Assembly (NCBI GenBank): GCA_002729175.1
Contig: PBTS01000069.1
Span: forward strand, 36,674-47,980
Source of the DNA: Fidelibacterota bacterium
GTDB taxonomy: Bacteria; Fidelibacterota; Marinisomatia; Marinisomatales; S15-B10
Direction of reading: 5' to 3'
DNA length: 11,307 nt
Shown one piece after another: positions 2,653 through 11,307 of this stretch. Under the pieces are notes generated by a model, which made no database searches, was not told the origin of the DNA, and saw nothing but the letters and a program-made list of their open reading frames with translations. Within the stretch, counting starts at the first letter, position 1, and every line of letters starts with the position of its first letter. A program made the translations under genes and the position numbers.

Positions 2653-3663
2653 TCAATAACCTGACTTTGTTGTCGTTATGACGACGGCTGCTATTCTGTA
2701 AGGATCGCCGTTGGAAGCGGGTCGTCTGTCTTCAAGCCGTCCTTTCCACCCATCTTCAATAGTTCCTACAGGAATCCGTATGGATGCACCTCTATCGTAT
2801 GCGGCAAATGAAAATGTATCGATGGATTCTGTTTCGTGGGCACCAGTCAACCTCTGATCATTATCCGCACCATAAACAGCAATATGCTCTTGAATCTTTT
2901 GCCCAAAAGCTTCGCAAATTTTGGTAAACACCGCTTCATCACCGCATGACCTCATAGTTGAGTCTGAGAAGTTGACGTGCATACCCGAGCCATTCCAGTC
3001 ACCTTTAATCGGTTTGGGATGCCAGTTTATTGCAACTCCGTATTTTTCTGCATTCCTCTCAGCTAGATATCTCGACACCCAAGTTTCGTCTCCGGCATCT
3101 TTCGCCCCTTTGGAAAATATCTGATATTCCCACTGTCCAGTTGCAACTTCAGCATTGATTCCTTCAACATTCAAACCAGCATCTAAACATTGATCAAGGT
3201 GATCTTCGATAATTTCCCTCCCAAAGGTATTCTTTGCACCGACACTGCAATAGTAAGGCCCCTGAGGATCGGGATAGGCATTCGCGGGAAAGCCCAAAGG
3301 AAGACCCGTTTCAGGATTCCACAGGAAATACTCTTGTTCAAAACCAAACCAGAAATCATTATCATCCTCATTTATAGTCGATCGTCCGTTTGATTCATGA
3401 GGGGTTCCGTCAGCATTTAAAACCTCGGTCATTACCAGATAACCATCACGTCTATCCGGATCAGGATAGATTGCGACAGGCTTCAGCAAGCAATCAGACT
3501 CTTTTCCGGAGGCCTGCTCTGTCGAACTGCCATCAAAAGCCCACATAGGACAGTCCTTTAATTCTCCAGAAAAATCGCTTTCAATTTTTGTCTTGCTTCG
3601 AAGACTCTGAGTGGGTTTGCAACCATCTAACCATATGTACTCCAATTTTGATTTCGCACTCAT
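2653..3663 (-). CDS. glnII: Glutamine synthetase type II (short, 336 aa)
   Basis: Motifs KLEYIWLDG, LRSKTK, WAFDGSST, GFEQEY, QGPYYC, GINAEVATGQWEYQI, DWNGSGMH, RLTGAHET, DRGASIRIP and LEDRRPASN. AGGAG Shine-Dalgarno just upstream of the ATG. Confidence 0.93.
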   Translation of the reverse strand: MSAKSKLEYIWLDGCKPTQSLRSKTKIESDFSGELKDCPMWAFDGSSTEQASGKESDCLLKPVAIYPDPDRRDGYLVMTEVLNADGTPHESNGRSTINEDDNDFWFGFEQEYFLWNPETGLPLGFPANAYPDPQGPYYCSVGAKNTFGREIIEDHLDQCLDAGLNVEGINAEVATGQWEYQIFSKGAKDAGDETWVSRYLAERNAEKYGVAINWHPKPIKGDWNGSGMHVNFSDSTMRSCGDEAVFTKICEAFGQKIQEHIAVYGADNDQRLTGAHETESIDTFSFAAYDRGASIRIPVGTIEDGWKGRLEDRRPASNGDPYRIAAVVITTTKSGY

Positions 3664-3811: not shown

Positions 3812-4936
3812 TTATTCCATAATCCAACCGGCCACGTCCTCACCAATAGCCAATGCTGCTGTCAACCCAGGTGAATCGATGCCGATAAGATTTATCCATC
3901 CGGGGTAATCGGACTCATGTTTCATGTAGAAATCAGAATGCCCATCCACCATTTCCACCAATTTTGGACGAATCCCGGCATAATCGGAGCTTAGGTCGCC
4001 ACGCTCCAGAGCGGGCAGATATATTTTCGCTTCACGATAAAAAAGATCCAAGTCAGTTTCGTCTACGGCATAATCTTCTGATCGGTCATCCATCCATTCG
4101 GCACTGGGGCCCAGTTTCATCTCACCGTTCTGATCAAAACTTAAGTGAATTCCCAATGTATCGTGGGATACATCAGGAATTGGATAGACAAGACGTTCAA
4201 TACGGTGGCGCCATTTCCCGGAAAGTTTGAAATAGGATCCCTTTAAATACCGCAGCGTGGGATGGGATTTATCATTTGTTCCCCAAAGAAACTGAGCTGT
4301 TTTATCACTATGGAGCCCCGCCGCGTTAACCACCCAAGTAGTGGTTACGGAATAGGATGCTTCCCCGGGTCCTTCAACTTGAAGAGAGTATATGTCACCC
4401 TTCGGTTCCGCACCAACAATAACAGCCTTGAGCAGTAGATCGTGGTCGGCATCAGCCGAAGTCCGATGAAACGCTGACATGAGTTCGTGGGCTGAAATAA
4501 TCCCCGTGCACCCTACAAACATGGCTGATGCCGCTGACACTTCCGGCTCCAGCGTCTGAATCTCCGCTCGATCCATCATATGAATCTCCGTAACACCATT
4601 AGACTGGGCCTGCTCATATAAAGCTTCTAACAGCGCCTCCTGATCGGACTGTGCCACCACAAGCTTACCGCACTTACTGTTCCAGACATCATTTTCACGA
4701 CAGAAAGCATAGAGTCGGTCCCGGCTGGCCAGGCAATACTTCGCTTTGAGAGAATCTGTAGGGTAGTAAATCCCGGAATGAATTACTTCGCTGTTCCGAC
4801 TTGAAATCCCCTGCCCAATGCCCATCTCTTTTTCCACGATGAGCACAGATGTTTCTCCCTTTATCGCCAGTGCCCGCGCTATGGCAAGACCTACAACACC
4901 GGCGCCTATAATGACCACCTTGTAATCCACATCCAT
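3812..4936 (-). CDS. FAD-dependent oxidoreductase, L-2-hydroxyglutarate oxidase (LhgO)/DAO family
   Basis: The likely start is ATG 4936 (MDVDYKVVIIGAGVVG, Rossmann GxGxxG); the longer ORF call to 5113 overlaps lrp. Motifs SSRNSEVIHSGIYY, CGKLVVA, VNAAGL, LGIH, YAGIRPK and GIDSPGLTAALAI. Confidence 0.88.
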   Translation of the reverse strand: MDVDYKVVIIGAGVVGLAIARALAIKGETSVLIVEKEMGIGQGISSRNSEVIHSGIYYPTDSLKAKYCLASRDRLYAFCRENDVWNSKCGKLVVAQSDQEALLEALYEQAQSNGVTEIHMMDRAEIQTLEPEVSAASAMFVGCTGIISAHELMSAFHRTSADADHDLLLKAVIVGAEPKGDIYSLQVEGPGEASYSVTTTWVVNAAGLHSDKTAQFLWGTNDKSHPTLRYLKGSYFKLSGKWRHRIERLVYPIPDVSHDTLGIHLSFDQNGEMKLGPSAEWMDDRSEDYAVDETDLDLFYREAKIYLPALERGDLSSDYAGIRPKLVEMVDGHSDFYMKHESDYPGWINLIGIDSPGLTAALAIGEDVAGWIME

Positions 4937-4944
4937 GGTTACAG

Positions 4945-5388
4945 TTACAGTTTCAGGCAGGTCGCTTCTTTGAAAGTTGACATGACGATCATAGTATGAG
5001 TCCGGATCACCCCCGGCCAAGACTGAATATCTCTCAACAGTGACTCCAGAGATGAAGTATCGTGAGCCCGGACTTTGAGGATATGGGACCCTTCTCCCGT
5101 AATGGAATGACACTCCAATACTTCATCATTATCTTGCGCATATTGAACCATATCGCCGTAAGAGCTAGAAGAAGACATATCTAAGAGAATGTATGCTGTC
5201 ACATCATAGCCTACTTTCTTAGCATCCAGCACGGCACGAAAATCTTTTAGAACACCACCTTCAGTCAGTTTCCGAATCCGTTCTGTAACAGCTGGTACGG
5301 ACAGATCCACTTTTTCCGCCATTTCGCTGGCCGTCATACGCCCGTCTTTCTGAAGAAGACTAAGAATTAGTTTGTCTTTCTCATCCAT
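4945..5388 (-). CDS. Lrp/AsnC family transcriptional regulator
   Basis: N-terminal HTH (MDEKDKLILSLLQKDGRMTASEMAEKVDLSVPAVTERIRKL) and C-terminal RAM domain (VLECHSITGE...GVIRTHTMIV); 147 aa. Confidence 0.95.
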   Translation of the reverse strand: MDEKDKLILSLLQKDGRMTASEMAEKVDLSVPAVTERIRKLTEGGVLKDFRAVLDAKKVGYDVTAYILLDMSSSSSYGDMVQYAQDNDEVLECHSITGEGSHILKVRAHDTSSLESLLRDIQSWPGVIRTHTMIVMSTFKEATCLKL

Positions 5389-5433
5389 GATATAGTGAAA
5401 ATTAAGGTAAAACTTCTCTTAATATTAAAATTT

Positions 5434-6204
5434 TTAAGTGTCACGGTGAATATATCTTGGAAGATGAAGTGTAGCAAAATCAAACTGAAAGGTGCAAAGT
5501 CGCGTCACATCGCCGGAGGAGAGGACAGTCTGGAAAGGGAGGATCGGCTCTTCCATCAGTTGTCCGAACAGTGTGGCAGAGGGGGCTTCGGGAATGGTCT
5601 CTTCAGCCGGCAAGGATTCTACCGTACAGTTACGGCTGATAGCCCGGAGAACTTTGTACAGAGGTATATCTTCATCTGAAAAAAGATTCAATTCTATCAC
5701 CGGCACGGCCGAAAGGGAGGACACCAGATTGGGTCGGCGGGATGTCAAAGTGAGCAATGATCCACACCGGGAGCCTCCCGATATAATCGGCATTGTATAA
5801 AGGCTTCCTGTTTCTTTCCGACGCGCCCACCGCTGAAGCAATATCGGGTCGGCACAGAAATGGAGGAGATCATCACCGCCGGGGACCACAATCTCCGTCA
5901 GTGGTGATTCATGAAGTTGGAACCGTGTGATGATTTCAGACAGTTGCGCATATCCATCTCTGTTTCGGGCAATAACCGTAACACTTCGTTCCCCATCTGT
6001 CATTTCAGCACCGATAAGGGGTGTAATATTGGCTTCGCCGCATGCAGTTGCAAATTCAACTGCACCATAGAGACCGTTCTCATCTGCCAGACAAAGCTGA
6101 CGCAAACCGTGATCGGAAGCGAACGTCACGATATCAGAAATGGAATGAACTCCTTTCAGAAAGGAGTAGTGACTCTTACAGATGACGAGAGATGAATAAC
6201 GCAC
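5434..6204 (-). CDS. Stand-alone PHP domain of DNA polymerase III alpha (DnaE/DnaE2-like N-terminus); truncated or degenerate, possibly a pseudogene
   Basis: SHYSFLKG, LADENGLYGAVEF, PLIGAE and IARNRDGYAQLSEIIT match the DnaE N-terminus. It ends in RLCTFQFDFATLHLPRY, like the PHP C-terminal boundary, and no polymerase core follows. The start is uncertain (GTG 6204 or TTG 6228). Confidence 0.8.
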   Translation of the reverse strand: MRYSSLVICKSHYSFLKGVHSISDIVTFASDHGLRQLCLADENGLYGAVEFATACGEANITPLIGAEMTDGERSVTVIARNRDGYAQLSEIITRFQLHESPLTEIVVPGGDDLLHFCADPILLQRWARRKETGSLYTMPIISGGSRCGSLLTLTSRRPNLVSSLSAVPVIELNLFSDEDIPLYKVLRAISRNCTVESLPAEETIPEAPSATLFGQLMEEPILPFQTVLSSGDVTRLCTFQFDFATLHLPRYIHRDT

Positions 6205-6227
6205 AAATAGCGTATAAATAGCGCACA
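6195..6227. repeat. Three imperfect tandem 11-bp repeats
   Basis: aataacgcaca (6195-6205), aatagcgtata (6206-6216), aatagcgcaca (6217-6227). Confidence 0.75.
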
Positions 6228-6276
6228 ATAAAAAGCCGCCGGGCCGGGCATTGGCCCGGCCGTCACGGCTTTTTAT
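6228..6276 (-). terminator. Rho-independent terminator downstream of ssb (potentially bidirectional)
   Basis: Outer inverted repeat ataaaaagccg (6228-6238) / cggctttttat (6266-6276), plus inner stem ggccgggc (6242-6249) / gcccggcc (6254-6261) with a 4-nt loop. T-tracts on both strands; 15 nt after the ssb stop. Confidence 0.85.
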
Positions 6277-6291
6277 ATAAGCAACCGCTAT

Positions 6292-6696
6292 CTAGAACGG
6301 GAGGTCTTCTTCTTCCGAAACGCTCTCCTTGTTAACTGGGACGCTGTCGTTGCTACTACTGCGTCGACCAAGCATGGTGAACATATCGCCGTGCACTTCC
6401 GTGGTGTTGCGCTTGTTCCCTTCCTTGTCTTCCCAAGAGCGCGTTCTCAATCTGCCCTCCACGTACACCATCTGACCTTTTTTGAGATACTGCGTGGCAG
6501 TTTCAGCGGGTTTGCCAAACAGTACACACCGGTGCCATTCGGTATGGTCCTCGAAATCACCATCAGAGTTCTTACGGCTTTCGTTGGTGGCAACGTTAAA
6601 GTTTGCCACGGCCGTACCCGACGGCGTGTATCGGCTCTCGGGATCTCCACCCAAATGGCCTACGAGGATGACGCGATTTATGCTTCCTTTCTGCAT
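6292..6696 (-). CDS. ssb: Single-stranded DNA-binding protein
   Basis: [44 protein letters not shown] and acidic C-terminal tip EEEDLPF; AGGAG RBS upstream. Confidence 0.98.
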
Positions 6697-6785
6697 TAGA
6701 TTTCTCCTTCCTTTGTTTGTTAGACTAACTACCCTCTTCCATTAGAAATATCATATCCCTGACCATGAAAATCAAGGAATTTGTT

Positions 6786-7952
6786 TCATCGCTTCTCGGC
6801 TAAACGGATCGCTTCTCCAGCCAACACTGCATTAAACCCAAACCGGCTCCGCGCCTTATCTATGGCCTCCAGCCGGTGCCATCCTTTTATCCACTCTCTC
6901 TCATCAAACAGATTCGTCTGACGGCCACTGCCGATGAGGTTCGATAGTCCCACCCCAATCAGACGAATCCCTACCCGGCGGGTAATGGCGGAGAACATCA
7001 GCTCCTTCGCCACGGAGAACAGTGAGGGGTCCCTACTCTCAGGCTGAGACAATGTCCGGGAACGATCGATGGTTTCAAAATCTTCGTACCGCAGTTTTAC
7101 CGACACGGTGCGGGCGGCTTTCTGTTCCTTGCGTAACCGCCGACACACTTTTTCCGTAAGCATATGGAGAACAGCCGTGATGTATTGTGGGTCGGTCGTG
7201 TCGGTACGGAAGGTGGTCTCTTTGCTGATGGATTTCCGTTCCCACTCCGGTAACAGTTCGCTCTCATATTTTCCCATAGATGCATACCAAAGCCATCGCC
7301 CGGTCGTCCCCAAAGTCGATTCCATAAGCAACTCCCCCGCTGCTGCGATCTGTCCCACCTGCTCCAGCCCAAAACTCTTTAGTAGTGTAGCTGTTGTTGC
7401 CCCCACACCAGGAATCACCTTCACCGGCAACGGCGCCAGGAAATGTGCCTCCGTTTCCACCGGAACCCACAGCAGACCGTTGGGTTTCGCCTCACTGGAA
7501 GCAATCTTGGCCGTCAGTTTGGTTCTGGCCATTCCCACTGTGCAGTCGAGCTGAGTCATCTGTTTAACGGCCCACCGGATCCGCTCTCCAGTCTCCATGG
7601 GACCGCCCCAAAGTCGCTCCGTTCCTGAAAGATCTATGTACCCCTCATCAATGGACGTCATCTCCACCATCGGCGAAAAAGATTGGAATATCTCCTTCAC
7701 TTTGAAGTGGTAATGGTTGTACAGGTCAAAATCTGTAGGCACGACTACCAGTTCGGGATACCGCCGGATAGCCACTGCCATGGGCATCGCTGAACGGACA
7801 CCAAACTCCCGCGCTTCATAGGATGCTGATGTCACCACGGAGCGCCCAATCTCAGGATCGACTCCCACAGCTACAGGCTTACCTTTCAGAGATGGATCTT
7901 TCAGCCGCTCCAAAGCAACAAAGAAACAGTCCATATCTACGTGAGCAATCAT
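6786..7952 (-). CDS. dinB: DNA polymerase IV (Y-family)
   Basis: Catalytic motifs intact: AHVDMDCFF, ASYEAREFGVRSAMP, SIDEGYID, AKIAS...KPNG, IPGVG. Little finger domain KSISKETTF...IRLIGV; clamp motif QTNLF. Confidence 0.96.
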   Translation of the reverse strand: MIAHVDMDCFFVALERLKDPSLKGKPVAVGVDPEIGRSVVTSASYEAREFGVRSAMPMAVAIRRYPELVVVPTDFDLYNHYHFKVKEIFQSFSPMVEMTSIDEGYIDLSGTERLWGGPMETGERIRWAVKQMTQLDCTVGMARTKLTAKIASSEAKPNGLLWVPVETEAHFLAPLPVKVIPGVGATTATLLKSFGLEQVGQIAAAGELLMESTLGTTGRWLWYASMGKYESELLPEWERKSISKETTFRTDTTDPQYITAVLHMLTEKVCRRLRKEQKAARTVSVKLRYEDFETIDRSRTLSQPESRDPSLFSVAKELMFSAITRRVGIRLIGVGLSNLIGSGRQTNLFDEREWIKGWHRLEAIDKARSRFGFNAVLAGEAIRLAEKR

Positions 7953-8031
7953 TTTATTTAGGTGATTAAGTGATTCATTAATTGGGCGGTTAGCTATGGC
8001 TCCGCCACGTCATTCCCATATGACCGGCCCA

Positions 8032-8060
8032 CGAGTATATTATACAAAAGGCGTATATTC
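8032..8060 (-). promoter_or_regulatory. Putative dinB promoter: -10 TATAAT overlapped by palindrome TATAC-N7-GTATA
   Basis: Minus-strand TATAAT at 8044-8039; palindrome at 8041-8057; no convincing -35 at canonical spacing. Confidence 0.45.
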
Positions 8061-8084
8061 AAAGAATAATAAAAGGGATTGGGA

Positions 8085-9317
8085 TCAACTGCTGTTCAAA
8101 CTTGTGGTAAAACGGACCAACTCATCAGCAAGCTCATTGACCCTCTCCACAACAGTTTCATCGGTGACGGTGCCGTCATTAAGCCGACTGTATTCTGACA
8201 TCATATAAACGGCAAAGGTGGCCAGCCAGTGCTCCCCGCCATAGCCGCTATCAAACATAATGTTGTATCCTTCCCGGGCATGGATGGCCGCCAGCCGCAA
8301 AAAGATCTCCCGCCTCGTATCAGACTCAGGCAACACGGACGCCAACTGGTTCATGGTCCACGCCCGGTGAAACATGAGGCCGATAAGGTGCCCTATACCC
8401 GGATCTTCCGGATCCAGTACCACCGGCGGTGTTCTCAGGGGTGCGAATCGGTCGTCGACCATTGGCGGGAGAAATGTGTCCAGCCAGGCCGGGAATGCGC
8501 CCCTCTCCATTGTTTTGCTCATGGATTCAGCTTCCGACAGACAGGGCGAAAGAAAGTCTGTTCCCGATGGTTCGTAGGCTGTGGGGCAGTCCCTGTCACT
8601 TGCGAAATACTGCTCGCTGAAATGCTTTATGCTACCAAGTAATGCTGTATCGCCAACGGTTTTCGCATAGTCGTGCATGAGAGAAAAAGAGAATGCCGAA
8701 TTGCTGTGTGTCCCCGGTCGGAGTGGTGAAGAGAGGACTTCCAAATACTCTACTGTTTTCTTTGACAGAAGTTCTACAAGGGGCTGCATGTTTTCAGCCC
8801 ATCGCTGACCTTCAGGGTCATCCCATGTTGACAGCTCACTGTAAAGTCTCATGAGCCATGCCCAGCCGTACGTCCGTTCAAAACCCTTGGTGAACTCATT
8901 GTCAGTAAAGAAATGGAATTCGGCTTCCAATTTTTCGGCGCTGAGGTTATTACGAAGTTTCGTGCGGATGCTGTCCCCCACTGAAATATTGGGAAACATC
9001 TTAAGTATCTTTGTCATGGTCCAGTGTCCGTGGACGGCGGAGTGCCAGTCCCAGCAGCCGTAGAACGACGGGGTCACTTCATAGTGAGGCTTGATCCACT
9101 CTTCGCTATCGAACCTGTAACCAATCTTGTAGGGAAATTCCCGTTCCACACAGTTGAGGGACAGTTTCACTAATTCTACCGCCCGCGCCTCATCCAAAAC
9201 CGGTGGCGAAACTTGAGGCAGTGATTTTAGGAGAGATGCTGCTTCGCGTTCCGGCGTGGAACAACCCCCCATAAAAATAAGCGCCAATACAACTGCCCAA
9301 ACATATCTGCTTTTCAC
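8085..9317 (-). CDS. DUF2891 family protein, predicted lipoprotein
   Basis: Motifs PSFYGCWDWHSAVHGHW, FERTYGWAW, RPGTHSNSAF, EPSGTDFLSPCL, HLIGL and YGGEHWLATFAVY. N-terminal lipobox-like ALIFMGG-C. The GTG start overlaps the upstream TGA (GTGA). Confidence 0.85.
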   Translation of the reverse strand: MKSRYVWAVVLALIFMGGCSTPEREAASLLKSLPQVSPPVLDEARAVELVKLSLNCVEREFPYKIGYRFDSEEWIKPHYEVTPSFYGCWDWHSAVHGHWTMTKILKMFPNISVGDSIRTKLRNNLSAEKLEAEFHFFTDNEFTKGFERTYGWAWLMRLYSELSTWDDPEGQRWAENMQPLVELLSKKTVEYLEVLSSPLRPGTHSNSAFSFSLMHDYAKTVGDTALLGSIKHFSEQYFASDRDCPTAYEPSGTDFLSPCLSEAESMSKTMERGAFPAWLDTFLPPMVDDRFAPLRTPPVVLDPEDPGIGHLIGLMFHRAWTMNQLASVLPESDTRREIFLRLAAIHAREGYNIMFDSGYGGEHWLATFAVYMMSEYSRLNDGTVTDETVVERVNELADELVRFTTSLNSS

Positions 9318-10226: not shown

Positions 10227-11307
10227 TTAGTTCTCAACAAGCGGCTTTTCTGTTGCCTGGCTCCTTGCATATTGAGCTCGGCTCAACCGCAGAGATAGCA
10301 GTCCCCAAACACCGGCCAGAGGTACAGTGGTCGTGGCAACAGCCGTGAGTGACAATCCCAAAGCTGCAAATAAACCATCCACCCCTGCGCCCGCCACATC
10401 TCCGCCGCGATATAGAAATACATCAACAATGGGTTTTGCTTTATATTTTTCTGAGGTGGAGACTACACTGAACAGTGTCTCTCTCGCTGGTCTTGAAACA
10501 GCATACCTTGTCGCCCGGTGTATTGCCTGGAAGATTGCCATCACCCCGTAAAGGGTCCAAATGGAAAGAACAGCGAAGCCGATCATAGTCACGGCTGGCA
10601 ATATAGCCAGGGTCCACCCGACACCTATTCTCTTAATGAGGTGAGTGGTAATAAATATCTGAGTAAACAGTGTGGCCATCTGGGCCAGCATATCGAACTG
10701 AGCAAATCCGGCCACTCTTTGGCTGAGCGTATCCGTATTATTTAAGATGATGCTTGCCTGGGTGAAATAAATCATTGTGTTAGAGATTGCCATCAGTATG
10801 ATGTAAACACCAATCCCAAGAATATATGGAGAGGTGGCAATTGCTCTCATACCGTCCCAAAATGTGCCACCGATCTTTTCAGTTTCTTCCTTCTGATTTT
10901 TTACCTGCTCCATTGCGAGCCGTGAAAGGGATGATCGGATTGCAAGACGATCCAACATCAGCACGATGAAAATCGCCAACCCGAAAAAGGTGGCCCCTAT
11001 TAGCATTAGGCCTACTGGCAAGTAAGCCGATTCAGTCATACCACTTATGACACTGGTGGCCCAGCCACCCGAAATGGCTCCCAGCGTTCCACCTATGCCA
11101 ATAAAGGGGAAAATTCTTTTGCATTGTTCAACATTAAATATATCGACCATAAAGGCCCAGAAAACACTGGTGACAAAAAGATTGATAACACTAAGCCATA
11201 CGTAAAAAGTATACCCAATCAGGCGGGAAATAACGGTCTCTGTATCCGATCCTATTAAACCTCCTCCAGCTGCTATGTCGGTGATTAGTAATCCTGCGAA
11301 GACAAGG
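10227..11307 (-). CDS. NTT/TLC (Npt1-like, ATP:ADP antiporter family) MFS transporter, partial (5' end outside the window)
   Basis: The frame stays open upstream of 11150 to the window edge (...GYTFYVWLSVINLFVTSVFWAFMVDIF...KRIFPFIGIGGTLG). C-terminal family motif RYAVSRPARETLF...KYKAKPIVDVFLYRGGD; multiple hydrophobic segments. Confidence 0.85.
   Translation of the reverse strand, partial: LVFAGLLITDIAAGGGLIGSDTETVISRLIGYTFYVWLSVINLFVTSVFWAFMVDIFNVEQCKRIFPFIGIGGTLGAISGGWATSVISGMTESAYLPVGLMLIGATFFGLAIFIVLMLDRLAIRSSLSRLAMEQVKNQKEETEKIGGTFWDGMRAIATSPYILGIGVYIILMAISNTMIYFTQASIILNNTDTLSQRVAGFAQFDMLAQMATLFTQIFITTHLIKRIGVGWTLAILPAVTMIGFAVLSIWTLYGVMAIFQAIHRATRYAVSRPARETLFSVVSTSEKYKAKPIVDVFLYRGGDVAGAGVDGLFAALGLSLTAVATTTVPLAGVWGLLSLRLSRAQYARSQATEKPLVEN

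Follow-up and report, generated by a model that had tools for sequence, protein, structure and literature searches.

A probable two-piece DnaE2-like DNA polymerase, encoded without inteins and conserved at an SOS-type dinB locus in a family of Marinimicrobia

To our knowledge, the PHP domain of bacterial C-family DNA polymerases has always been described as part of the catalytic chain. What, then, is encoded by a locus in which this domain stands in an open reading frame (ORF) of its own, close to the gene of a Y-family polymerase? The locus lies in an 11,307-nucleotide stretch of a Fidelibacterota bacterium (GenBank assembly GCA_002729175.1, contig PBTS01000069.1, positions 36,674 to 47,980; G000:C15:36674-47980 in our numbering), which we call the window; its draft genome comprises 1.83 Mb on 87 contigs, with completeness at 93% and contamination estimated at 7.1%. 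As a preliminary description of this DNA had stated, an intact dinB, an ssb and a PHP-only ORF are all present on the minus strand of the window. That description left three readings side by side: a split DnaE with its core encoded elsewhere, a PHP domain retained as a free accessory subunit of DinB, or a deletion remnant. We consider the first of these to be the probable one, in the form of a two-piece, intein-less DnaE2-like polymerase, a variant of the polY-dnaE2 cassette that is conserved across its family of marine, uncultured bacteria and located at an SOS-type dinB locus.

The PHP-only ORF has no internal stop and ends five residues past a conserved 'HLPRY' at the linker between the PHP domain and the palm, with its stop codon 45 nt from the lrp ATG (5388); the earlier account of an uninterrupted frame terminating a few residues after the domain boundary, directly against lrp, was accurate. 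Read from a TTG, the frame covers 5434-6228 (264 aa); when 13 copies from the family are aligned, however, the start they share is a GTG, at position 6204. Its sole Pfam family is PHP (E 1.5e-15, residues 17-106), and its best NCBIfam match is to the first ~100 positions of the 'error-prone DNA polymerase' model NF004225. A search of the window's genome with PF07733 returned three matches, two of which are full-length DnaE1-like genes (1161 and 1146 aa) that include a PHP domain. No such domain is present in the third, an open frame of 765 aa (G000:C15:27441-29738, minus) that shares its contig and strand with the PHP ORF. The search for a dnaE lacking this domain, which the preliminary description had proposed, thus found one, and the idea of a split DnaE is borne out by a PHP-less core of 762 aa that starts where the PHP ORF stops. 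On the chromosome the core lies downstream, 12.4 kb from the PHP ORF stop (C15:42107) to the core start (C15:29729), which is 6.9 kb past the left edge of the window.

Alignment with contiguous homologues places the end of the PHP piece, '...FDFATLHLPRYIHRDT', and the start of the core, 'MNRTSADHLVNICH...', at adjacent positions of the PHP/palm linker, with no loss, overlap, duplication or extra residues at the junction. The PHP piece ends 3-5 residues past 'HLPRF/Y', and the core begins ~5 residues before the aligned N-terminus of the palm. Because the pieces abut at adjacent linker positions, there is no room for intein halves, and Pfam scans of the PHP piece and the core detected no intein family. 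The core matches PF07733 (pol3_alpha, residues 8-253), PF17657 (finger), PF14579 (HHH_6) and, weakly, an OB domain. The aspartates D107, D109, D111 and D250 of its PDIDVD and KIDLLG motifs, which we take to be the catalytic residues, are invariant in 23 sequences. Both parts of a DnaE-type alpha subunit, the N-terminal PHP fold and the polymerase core (palm, thumb, fingers, HhH, OB), are therefore encoded, though not in the single polypeptide that characterizes a C-family alpha subunit; combined, they amount to 1018 aa, a DnaE2-like size unlike that of the genome's DnaE1.

An AlphaFold2 model of the separate PHP piece (mean pLDDT 74.7) has a PHP fold over the whole 256 aa, and its best matches in the PDB are Pol III alpha chains, namely 2hnh (E 2e-11, TM-score 0.63 on the query), 2hpi and 5fkw (TM-scores 0.59-0.63). 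A sequence profile of the piece likewise finds Pol III alpha chains in the PDB (E 2.8e-11). Among the structural matches, some 20 chains of Pol III alpha and PolC come ahead of RNase AM and the amidohydrolases, and the piece does not classify as a stand-alone PHP phosphoesterase of the YcdX or RNase AM type. According to the accessible text of a recent survey, a disrupted PHP site is recognized by deviation from the signature HHDHEH[C/H]DH (PMC12926913). Only one of the nine metal ligands is kept in each of the 19 family PHP pieces, while all nine are present in the two DnaE1 copies of the genome, and similarly dead sites are found in all six contiguous DnaE2-like proteins compared. For these counts the residues of the signature were assigned to the sequence contexts that presumably correspond to them. 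The piece thus shows the disrupted metal site of the DnaE2/ImuC group. Since a single ligand is left, the domain would serve as a structural element or docking surface and not as a nuclease; the dead PHP domain of DnaE2 is generally thought to be structural and to dock the Y-family partner. Alignment of the 19 pieces retains 34 invariant columns. As to the two DnaE1-like genes (G000:C36:18896-21136 and G000:C1:3939-6188; 1161 and 1146 aa), both with complete PHP metal sites, the 1146-aa type has the size seen in the family's other genera, and with 7.1% contamination the second copy may belong to a co-binned relative instead of being a paralogue.

When the PHP piece was modelled with residues 1-640 of the core, as the preliminary description had suggested, the predicted complex reached an ipSAE of 0.83 (runs 0.82, 0.83 and 0.85) against 0.00 for the best of three controls, a result that may reflect a memory of the fold. 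The mark applied to this score is reached by 116 of 157 solved complexes and by 2 of 215 mismatched pairs. The predicted interface comprises ~130 contacts, with a contact agreement of at least 96% and a partner pLDDT of at least 81. In these models the prediction shows two pieces that would still fit together like one alpha subunit.

To establish how far this arrangement extends, we compared 14 other genomes of the same Marinimicrobia family (15 with the window's own). PHP-only frames of 245-285 aa are present in 12 of the 14, from five genera and at 94-39% identity; their matches end at query residues 251-256 of 256, and the stop is fixed within one residue in all 13 copies. The same 12 genomes carry the PHP-less core, at 69-97% identity for the main match and 74-81% for the partial pieces in G010 and G012. 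Co-occurrence is perfect, with both pieces in 13 genomes and neither in two (G007 and G011, 64-76% complete), which have only a DnaE1-like gene. These two belong to genus g5. Searches for RecA likewise stayed below the cut-off in them, with no match at all in G007 and one of 20 bits in G011; the gaps may reflect the incompleteness of both genomes and not that the damage-response genes were lost together. In the order's other families, the sequences most similar to the PHP piece form part of frames of ~1003-1058 aa, at 24-32% identity.

The gene order dinB-ssb-PHP-lrp-L2HG oxidase, continuing after a block of other genes with a divergent rpiB, the core and a penicillin amidase gene, recurs in all nine of the other family genomes examined for it. 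Its two boundaries, PHP piece to lrp and rpiB to core, are constant, and the interior of the block is variable, holding glnII, an M28 peptidase, recN, PPK2, a histidine phosphatase and others. The gap between the pieces measures 7.3-15 kb in the six genomes that have both on one contig, and neither the seven block products scanned nor the window products scanned include a transposase or integrase. This constancy bears directly on whether the split could be an assembly or binning artefact arising from a chimeric join near 5434. The genome is a draft in many pieces (87 contigs, estimated contamination 7.1%), and no contig of the four RNA libraries considered below crosses 5378-5489; yet the assembly break that the preliminary description had allowed for at this point is ruled out by identical PHP-lrp and rpiB-core junctions in nine other assemblies, from five genera at 39-94% identity. 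Nor would one expect a chimeric join to place an in-frame stop, in one genus after another, at the same domain boundary. The 14 DNA runs that contain 0.99 of the sampled words of 4900-8100 add weak support, all 14 being flagged as possible sources. We attach practically no probability to an artefact.

Two further observations concern the genes around the block. The glnII-like gene of the window (2653-3663) is 53% identical to that of the congener G002 (L037 12328-13323), and this GlnII-type glutamine synthetase is 87-88% identical to that of another genus (G004, G009, G014), whereas the neighbouring genes are 84-94% identical to those of G002, a pattern that suggests gene replacement in one of the two lineages. 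At the other boundary, rpiB and the core share a very short control region (G000:C15:29739-29776), in which, by eye, a TAaaTTTG on the reverse strand stands 4 bases before the ATG of the divergent rpiB, with the core start ~45 nt away; the element resembles TAnnTTTG, the -7 consensus of Bacteroidetes-type promoters.

Both pieces are under purifying selection, which is weaker on the PHP piece. Pairwise ratios of nonsynonymous to synonymous substitution (dN/dS, by NG86 on unsaturated pairs) are 0.27, 0.37, 0.30 and 0.18 for the PHP piece and 0.18, 0.14, 0.12 and 0.10 for the core, compared with 0.17 and 0.12 for dinB and 0.08-0.13 for lrp. It is against these values that the third of the original readings has to be judged, in which both ORFs would be remnants of a broken dnaE2 heading to loss and the PHP piece would be functionless. 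The destroyed PHP metal site (one of nine ligands), the dN/dS of the PHP piece as the highest in the locus, the want of a recognized promoter between the ssb terminator and the PHP start, and the fragmented core in G012 would all suit such decay. However, the frame is open in 13 of 13 genomes from five genera at a synonymous divergence above 1, its start and stop are conserved, its dN/dS is 0.18-0.37, 34 columns are invariant in 19 sequences, an operator-like motif of its own (described below) is kept in four genera, and dead PHP sites are equally found in all six contiguous DnaE2-like proteins compared. A deletion remnant, as the preliminary description had conceived it, is contradicted by a family that has no full-length gene at this site, by a truncation fixed in 13 of 13 copies and by dN/dS values that are not close to 1. 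We regard decay as very improbable.

The genes upstream of the PHP piece set the context in which a split polymerase would act (Table 1). All large ORFs between 3.8 and 11.3 kb of the window are on the minus strand. The dinB product scores 296.8 bits against the NCBIfam DNA polymerase IV model NF002677 (cut-off 256); its catalytic motifs DMDCFF and SIDEGY are intact in the translation by eye, so that it is not ImuB-like, and it carries, also by eye, a clamp-like QTNLF motif followed by a C-terminal tail of ~40 aa. The window's ssb is the sole PF00436 match in the 93%-complete genome and has its own terminator-like hairpin downstream, for which reasons it is the housekeeping ssb and not a dedicated component of a cassette. 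The dinB-ssb-PHP cassette of the preliminary description therefore stands as a gene order, whereas the membership of ssb in it was overstated. Hairpin-forming sequence is found by eye at the same place after ssb in relatives. A sigma-70-like site at 5477-5449, ahead of lrp, falls within the last codons of the PHP ORF, and no sigma-70-like promoter for the PHP piece was found between the ssb terminator and the PHP start, where inspection by eye also revealed no convincing candidate. At the far end of the window an open-ended ORF (10227-11306) matches weakly the TLC ATP/ADP (NTP/NDP exchange) transporters (Pfam 36.6 bits, NCBIfam far under the cut-off); relatives keep this TLC-like ORF beside a cyanophycinase-like gene and DUF2891.

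Table 1. Positions of the polymerase pieces and of neighbouring genes and signals (window numbering unless a contig is given)
Feature	Position	Strand	Remarks
dinB-like Y-family polymerase	6786..7952	-	388 aa; Pfam IMS, IMS_C, IMS_HHH
ssb	6292..6696	-	134 aa; Pfam SSB E 5.9e-39; C-terminal tip ...EEEDLPF
PHP piece, N-terminal part of the probable split DnaE2-like polymerase	5434..6204	-	256 aa from GTG; PHP only
lrp/asnC-type regulator	4945..5388	-	first gene of the block separating the polymerase pieces
PHP-less DnaE-type core (P0002)	G000:C15:27444-29729	-	762 aa from first ATG; outside the window
16-nt operator-like motif TATACGCCTTTTGTAT	8042..8057	-	upstream of dinB; putative LexA box
Second operator-like motif TATACGCTATTTGTGC	6201..6216	-	overlaps the GTG start of the PHP piece, directly past the hairpin
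Terminator-like hairpin	6229..6260	-	8-pair all-G-C stem (6260-6238) and T run; between ssb and the PHP piece

The regulatory sequences distinguish the two pieces from each other. The motif ahead of dinB, TATACGCCTTTTGTAT, is situated inside the spacer of a sigma-70-like promoter (8062-8034; -35 TTGAAT, -10 TATACT), and in addition to the second copy at the PHP start a further one, TGTACGCTTTTTGTAC, stands 18 nt before the ATG of the genome's lexA, a canonical gene whose 203-aa product has LexA_DNA_bind and S24 domains. A 17-nt pattern matches the genome exactly four times, once each at dinB, lexA, the start of the PHP piece and a Zn-ribbon ORF, where ~0.2 would be expected by our own arithmetic for a pattern that was fitted to three of the four. 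The 16-nt pattern TRTACRCYNTTTRTRY has 45 matches in the 15 family genomes, against one for its reversed control. Among 30 of these 45, the sites comprise dinB (8), the Zn-ribbon ORF (8), the PHP start (6), lexA (5) and three unassigned ones, which leaves 27 of the 30 listed loci with those four genes; four further matches fall at the PHP start by their coordinates, and the motif at this start is kept in four genera. Upstream of the core, no copy with up to two mismatches occurs within 300 nt in any of 10 genomes. On this distribution, the motif is the putative LexA operator of the lineage; dinB and the PHP piece would then be members of the SOS regulon, and the core would stand outside it. 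As the motif is shared by the PHP piece, dinB and lexA and not by the core, the PHP piece is probably damage-inducible and the core would be expressed independently. The known LexA motifs of Bacteroidetes, GGA-N5-TCC and CTAA-N5-TTAG in the accessible text of PMC8565304, were considered as counterparts and rejected, having no resemblance to the 16-nt motif.

The Zn-ribbon ORF (G000:C51:1707-1950) encodes ~64 aa with a CxxC...CxC pattern, judged by eye to be a Zn ribbon, and is flanked by a PepA-like aminopeptidase gene on one side and glcD-like genes on the other. Its motif is located just past a TTGACA-17-TAAACT promoter; the pairing recurs in 8 of the 30 loci (L087, L089, L090, L091, L094, L101, L108 and L111), and the ORF looks like a fourth member of the putative SOS regulon. 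The leader of dinB (7953-8033, ...GGTCAgatgggaaTGACGTGGCGGAGCCATAG...) is conserved over three genera (G000, G002, G004, G014 and G008); part of it could form a hairpin, so that it may be a structured leader. At gathering thresholds Rfam has no family in the window, the dinB leader included.

The one-sided distribution of the motif is open to a stronger interpretation, which we advance tentatively and hold to be possible without being likely. The PHP piece may be a damage-inducible licensing subunit for a core that is made independently of the SOS response but that, on its own, would lack stability, activity or the ability to dock to DinB/RecA and the clamp. LexA cleavage would then lead to production of the PHP piece together with DinB, and mutagenic synthesis would be gated by the assembly of subunits and not by transcription of the polymerase. 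UmuD', which licenses UmuC, offers an analogy.

The same evidence can also be turned against the idea of a split polymerase. The PHP piece might have been co-opted as a damage-induced accessory or docking subunit of DinB, SSB or RecA, leaving the core to act alone or with another partner. It adjoins dinB-ssb in every family genome examined, shares the operator-like motif with dinB and lexA to the exclusion of the core, and evolves faster than the core; moreover, in published models of the ImuA-ImuB-DnaE2 system, to judge from the accessible text, the C-terminal domain of the Y-family protein docks via the PHP domain of DnaE2 (PMC12926913). Such a role would leave the perfect co-occurrence of the piece with the core unaccounted for (both in 13 genomes, neither in two), as well as the predicted PHP-core interface of ~130 contacts and the precise coincidence of the piece's end with the domain boundary. 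A piece packed on the core could, besides, also dock to DinB. On balance we think an accessory role in place of a split enzyme rather unlikely.

Are the genes of the locus transcribed? The stretch is present in 20 of the 24 listed sequencing runs, from 13 studies, and six of these runs are RNA libraries. Contigs were obtained from four RNA libraries of four studies (X15, X17, X18 and X20); contigs of this kind give no information on strand, transcript ends or expression level, their gaps are equally uninformative, and the libraries may include DNA. In all four, ssb is the deepest part of the locus (184-418, versus 2-15 for the flanks). Only in X15, a hydrothermal-vent library, is dinB also deep, in a 1707-nt contig of depth 184 that spans ssb and dinB up to 8045, near the predicted promoter. 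In X15 and X17, contigs run from ssb across the hairpin to the PHP start. None covers 5378-5489, and those of X15, X17 and X18 end or begin near 5871-5927. Taken together, the RNA-library contigs weakly support transcription of the PHP ORF.

Among 5.8 billion clusters the PHP piece has 14 relatives, of which 13 are 232-264 aa long. The core has 34 PHP-less clusters (736-870 aa, 63-99% identity), whose named sources are Marinimicrobia, Neomarinimicrobiota or Fidelibacterota; its next-best matches are contiguous proteins, mostly of 1010-1130 aa and with PHP, at no more than 50% identity. A quick maximum-likelihood tree groups 11 split cores in a single clade (SH-aLRT 100), with 18 contiguous proteins as the sister group (86); the DnaE2s of the order are a separate clade, and DnaE1 falls outside. 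This topology points to a single split event, in the ancestor of the family. The closest contiguous relatives with DNA context, L054 from an Acidobacteriota metagenome-assembled genome (MAG) and L055 from a Spirochaetia MAG, lie directly downstream of a dinB-like gene (34-37% identity of its product), and L054 has a LexA-looking frame upstream by eye. Of six genomes sampled in the order outside this family, five likewise have a PolY gene directly followed by a contiguous DnaE2. These cassettes were considered as the ancestral state and rejected, as they fall in a distinct clade of the tree with cores 36-37% identical; together with L054 and L055 they serve only as examples of the arrangement.

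A profile search in other lineages also turned up many short ORFs of PHP-only length; most of the 10 examined are singletons on short contigs or continue into the palm, and are probably fragments. One group consists of P0140, P0284 and P0285 (P0140 with 3 members of 276-286 aa) and P0142 (265 aa, on a 20.5-kb contig). The P0140/P0142 group ends 10-22 residues past the same boundary, there 'LPGF', and is 25-28% identical to the window's piece and 42% identical mutually. These ORFs are possible independent splits.

A coherent history can be proposed for the family. It would start from an ancestral polY-dnaE2 operon, into which ssb likely entered between polY and dnaE2 and a housekeeping block inside dnaE2. 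A chromosomal rearrangement in the family ancestor would have cut the dnaE2-like gene at the PHP/palm linker, setting 7-15 kb of ordinary metabolic and repair genes between the pieces. Both pieces would still be made, and their reassembly would most likely be non-covalent and need no intein. The dead PHP domain would rest against palm and thumb of the 762-aa core, as it does within the single chain of Pol III alpha, to give a two-chain enzyme of 1018 aa. Its partner may be the active DinB-like polymerase whose gene lies two genes upstream, as in polY-dnaE2 translesion modules of the DnaE2B-PolY-RecA type, with the PHP piece probably damage-inducible and the core expressed on its own.

The closest known system to such an enzyme is the DnaE2B-PolY-RecA module, for which the accessible text of Timinskas et al. 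(NAR 2026, PMC12926913) describes polY-dnaE2 pairs that are devoid of ImuA/ImuB and linked to an active PolY with a RecA-NT motif. As in that module, an apparently active PolY gene is associated with a DnaE2-like polymerase with a dead PHP domain; in the module it stands immediately upstream of a polymerase of ~1000-1050 aa, and in every genome of this family that was examined, dinB precedes the PHP piece by two genes. LexA-type regulation is likely in both, and the contiguous relatives L054 and L055 show exactly the dinB-dnaE2 order. The differences are that here the polymerase is in two pieces 7-15 kb apart, that the sole genomic ssb stands between polY and the first piece, and that the motif is on the first piece only. 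As to the RecA-NT motif by which the module is defined, the best local hhalign match from shallow family alignments pairs the tail of DinB, 'AIDKARSRFGFNAVLA', with the RecA N-terminus, 'ALGQIDKQFGKGSIMR', below significance (E 0.032, probability 1.6%), and BLASTP of the tail against the RecA N-terminus returned no alignment.

In the ImuA-ImuB-DnaE2 (ImuC) system, too, a Y-family protein is paired with an additional DnaE copy in a damage-inducible manner; it differs in that DinB here keeps its catalytic residues and that the NF004225 cut-off is unreached. An inactive Y-family partner and a RecA-like ImuA, as found with DnaE2/ImuC, are both missing: PF00154 detects a single RecA and no second RecA-like match in the window's genome, although no dedicated ImuA or ImuB-C model was run. 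In AlphaFold models of that system, as reported in the accessible text, the PHP domain of DnaE2 is the main interface to the Y-family C-terminal domain (PMC12926913). Where the literature on ImuA-ImuB-DnaE2 speaks of a 'split cassette', the accessible portions of two surveys use it for whole genes that lie apart and not for a cut dnaE2 (PMC6511836, PMC3919608).

A polymerase in two genes is familiar from cyanobacteria, where dnaE-n and dnaE-c similarly supply a C-family catalytic subunit from two distant genes of one chromosome. There the halves are rejoined covalently by protein trans-splicing of a split intein, whereas here intein halves are absent. The cyanobacterial split also lies inside the polymerase and not at the PHP/palm linker. 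With the PHP domain of Pol III alpha, as in the E. coli alpha-epsilon assembly (PDB 2hnh, 4jom, 4gx8), the PHP piece shares its fold and the predicted packing on palm and thumb. In all solved structures of Pol III alpha known to us, PHP is covalently part of the alpha subunit. Two polymerase surveys, as far as their accessible text extends, mention splits as intein cases or frameshift fragments, which were joined, reconstructed or discarded (PMC6511836, PMC3919608). A separately encoded PHP subunit or a split dnaE2 was not found described in the literature searched, and supplementary files might list cases.

Several observations weigh against a split DnaE2-like polymerase and temper our confidence in it. 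Assembly of the complex and its activity are predictions, and the high interface score may be the model's memory of solved single-chain Pol III alpha, in which case it would attest to likeness and not to binding. Against the error-prone polymerase model NF004225, whose cut-off is 939 bits, the PHP piece reaches 62.4 bits and the core 545.5; the DnaE model NF004226 fits the core better, at 685.6 bits, again short of its cut-off (1002). For both reasons we name the enzyme DnaE2-like and not a member of DnaE2. The PHP piece diverges to 39% identity versus 69% for the core, with a dN/dS about twice as high, which is compatible with a relaxed or altered function. It stays linked to dinB-ssb and not to the core, and with the motif missing from the core, co-expression of the two is uncertain. 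In three of the four RNA runs the depth over the PHP ORF is as low as over the neighbouring genes, and in X20 there is no cover. The core is in several frames in G012 and its matches are interrupted in G010 and G006, through either assembly error or decay. The family genomes are kin, so that their counts are not independent, and the order-level PolY-DnaE2 cassettes are not orthologous and illustrate an arrangement, not an ancestor.

For the biology of these bacteria, the two-piece polymerase would represent a natural dissection of domains, in which PHP has been encoded apart from the core through the whole existence of the family and could act in trans. The two pieces constitute a ready-made system for asking what a dead PHP domain contributes, be it stability, polymerase activity, or binding of PolY, RecA or the clamp. 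The presence of the motif on one piece only suggests control of a mutagenic polymerase at the level of its assembly, and if the licensing interpretation were true, a domain of a C-family polymerase would be acting in trans as a regulatory subunit. More generally, surveys that discard or merge 'fragments', and annotation pipelines that name both products 'DNA polymerase III subunit alpha', will overlook systems of this kind in uncultured lineages or describe them wrongly.

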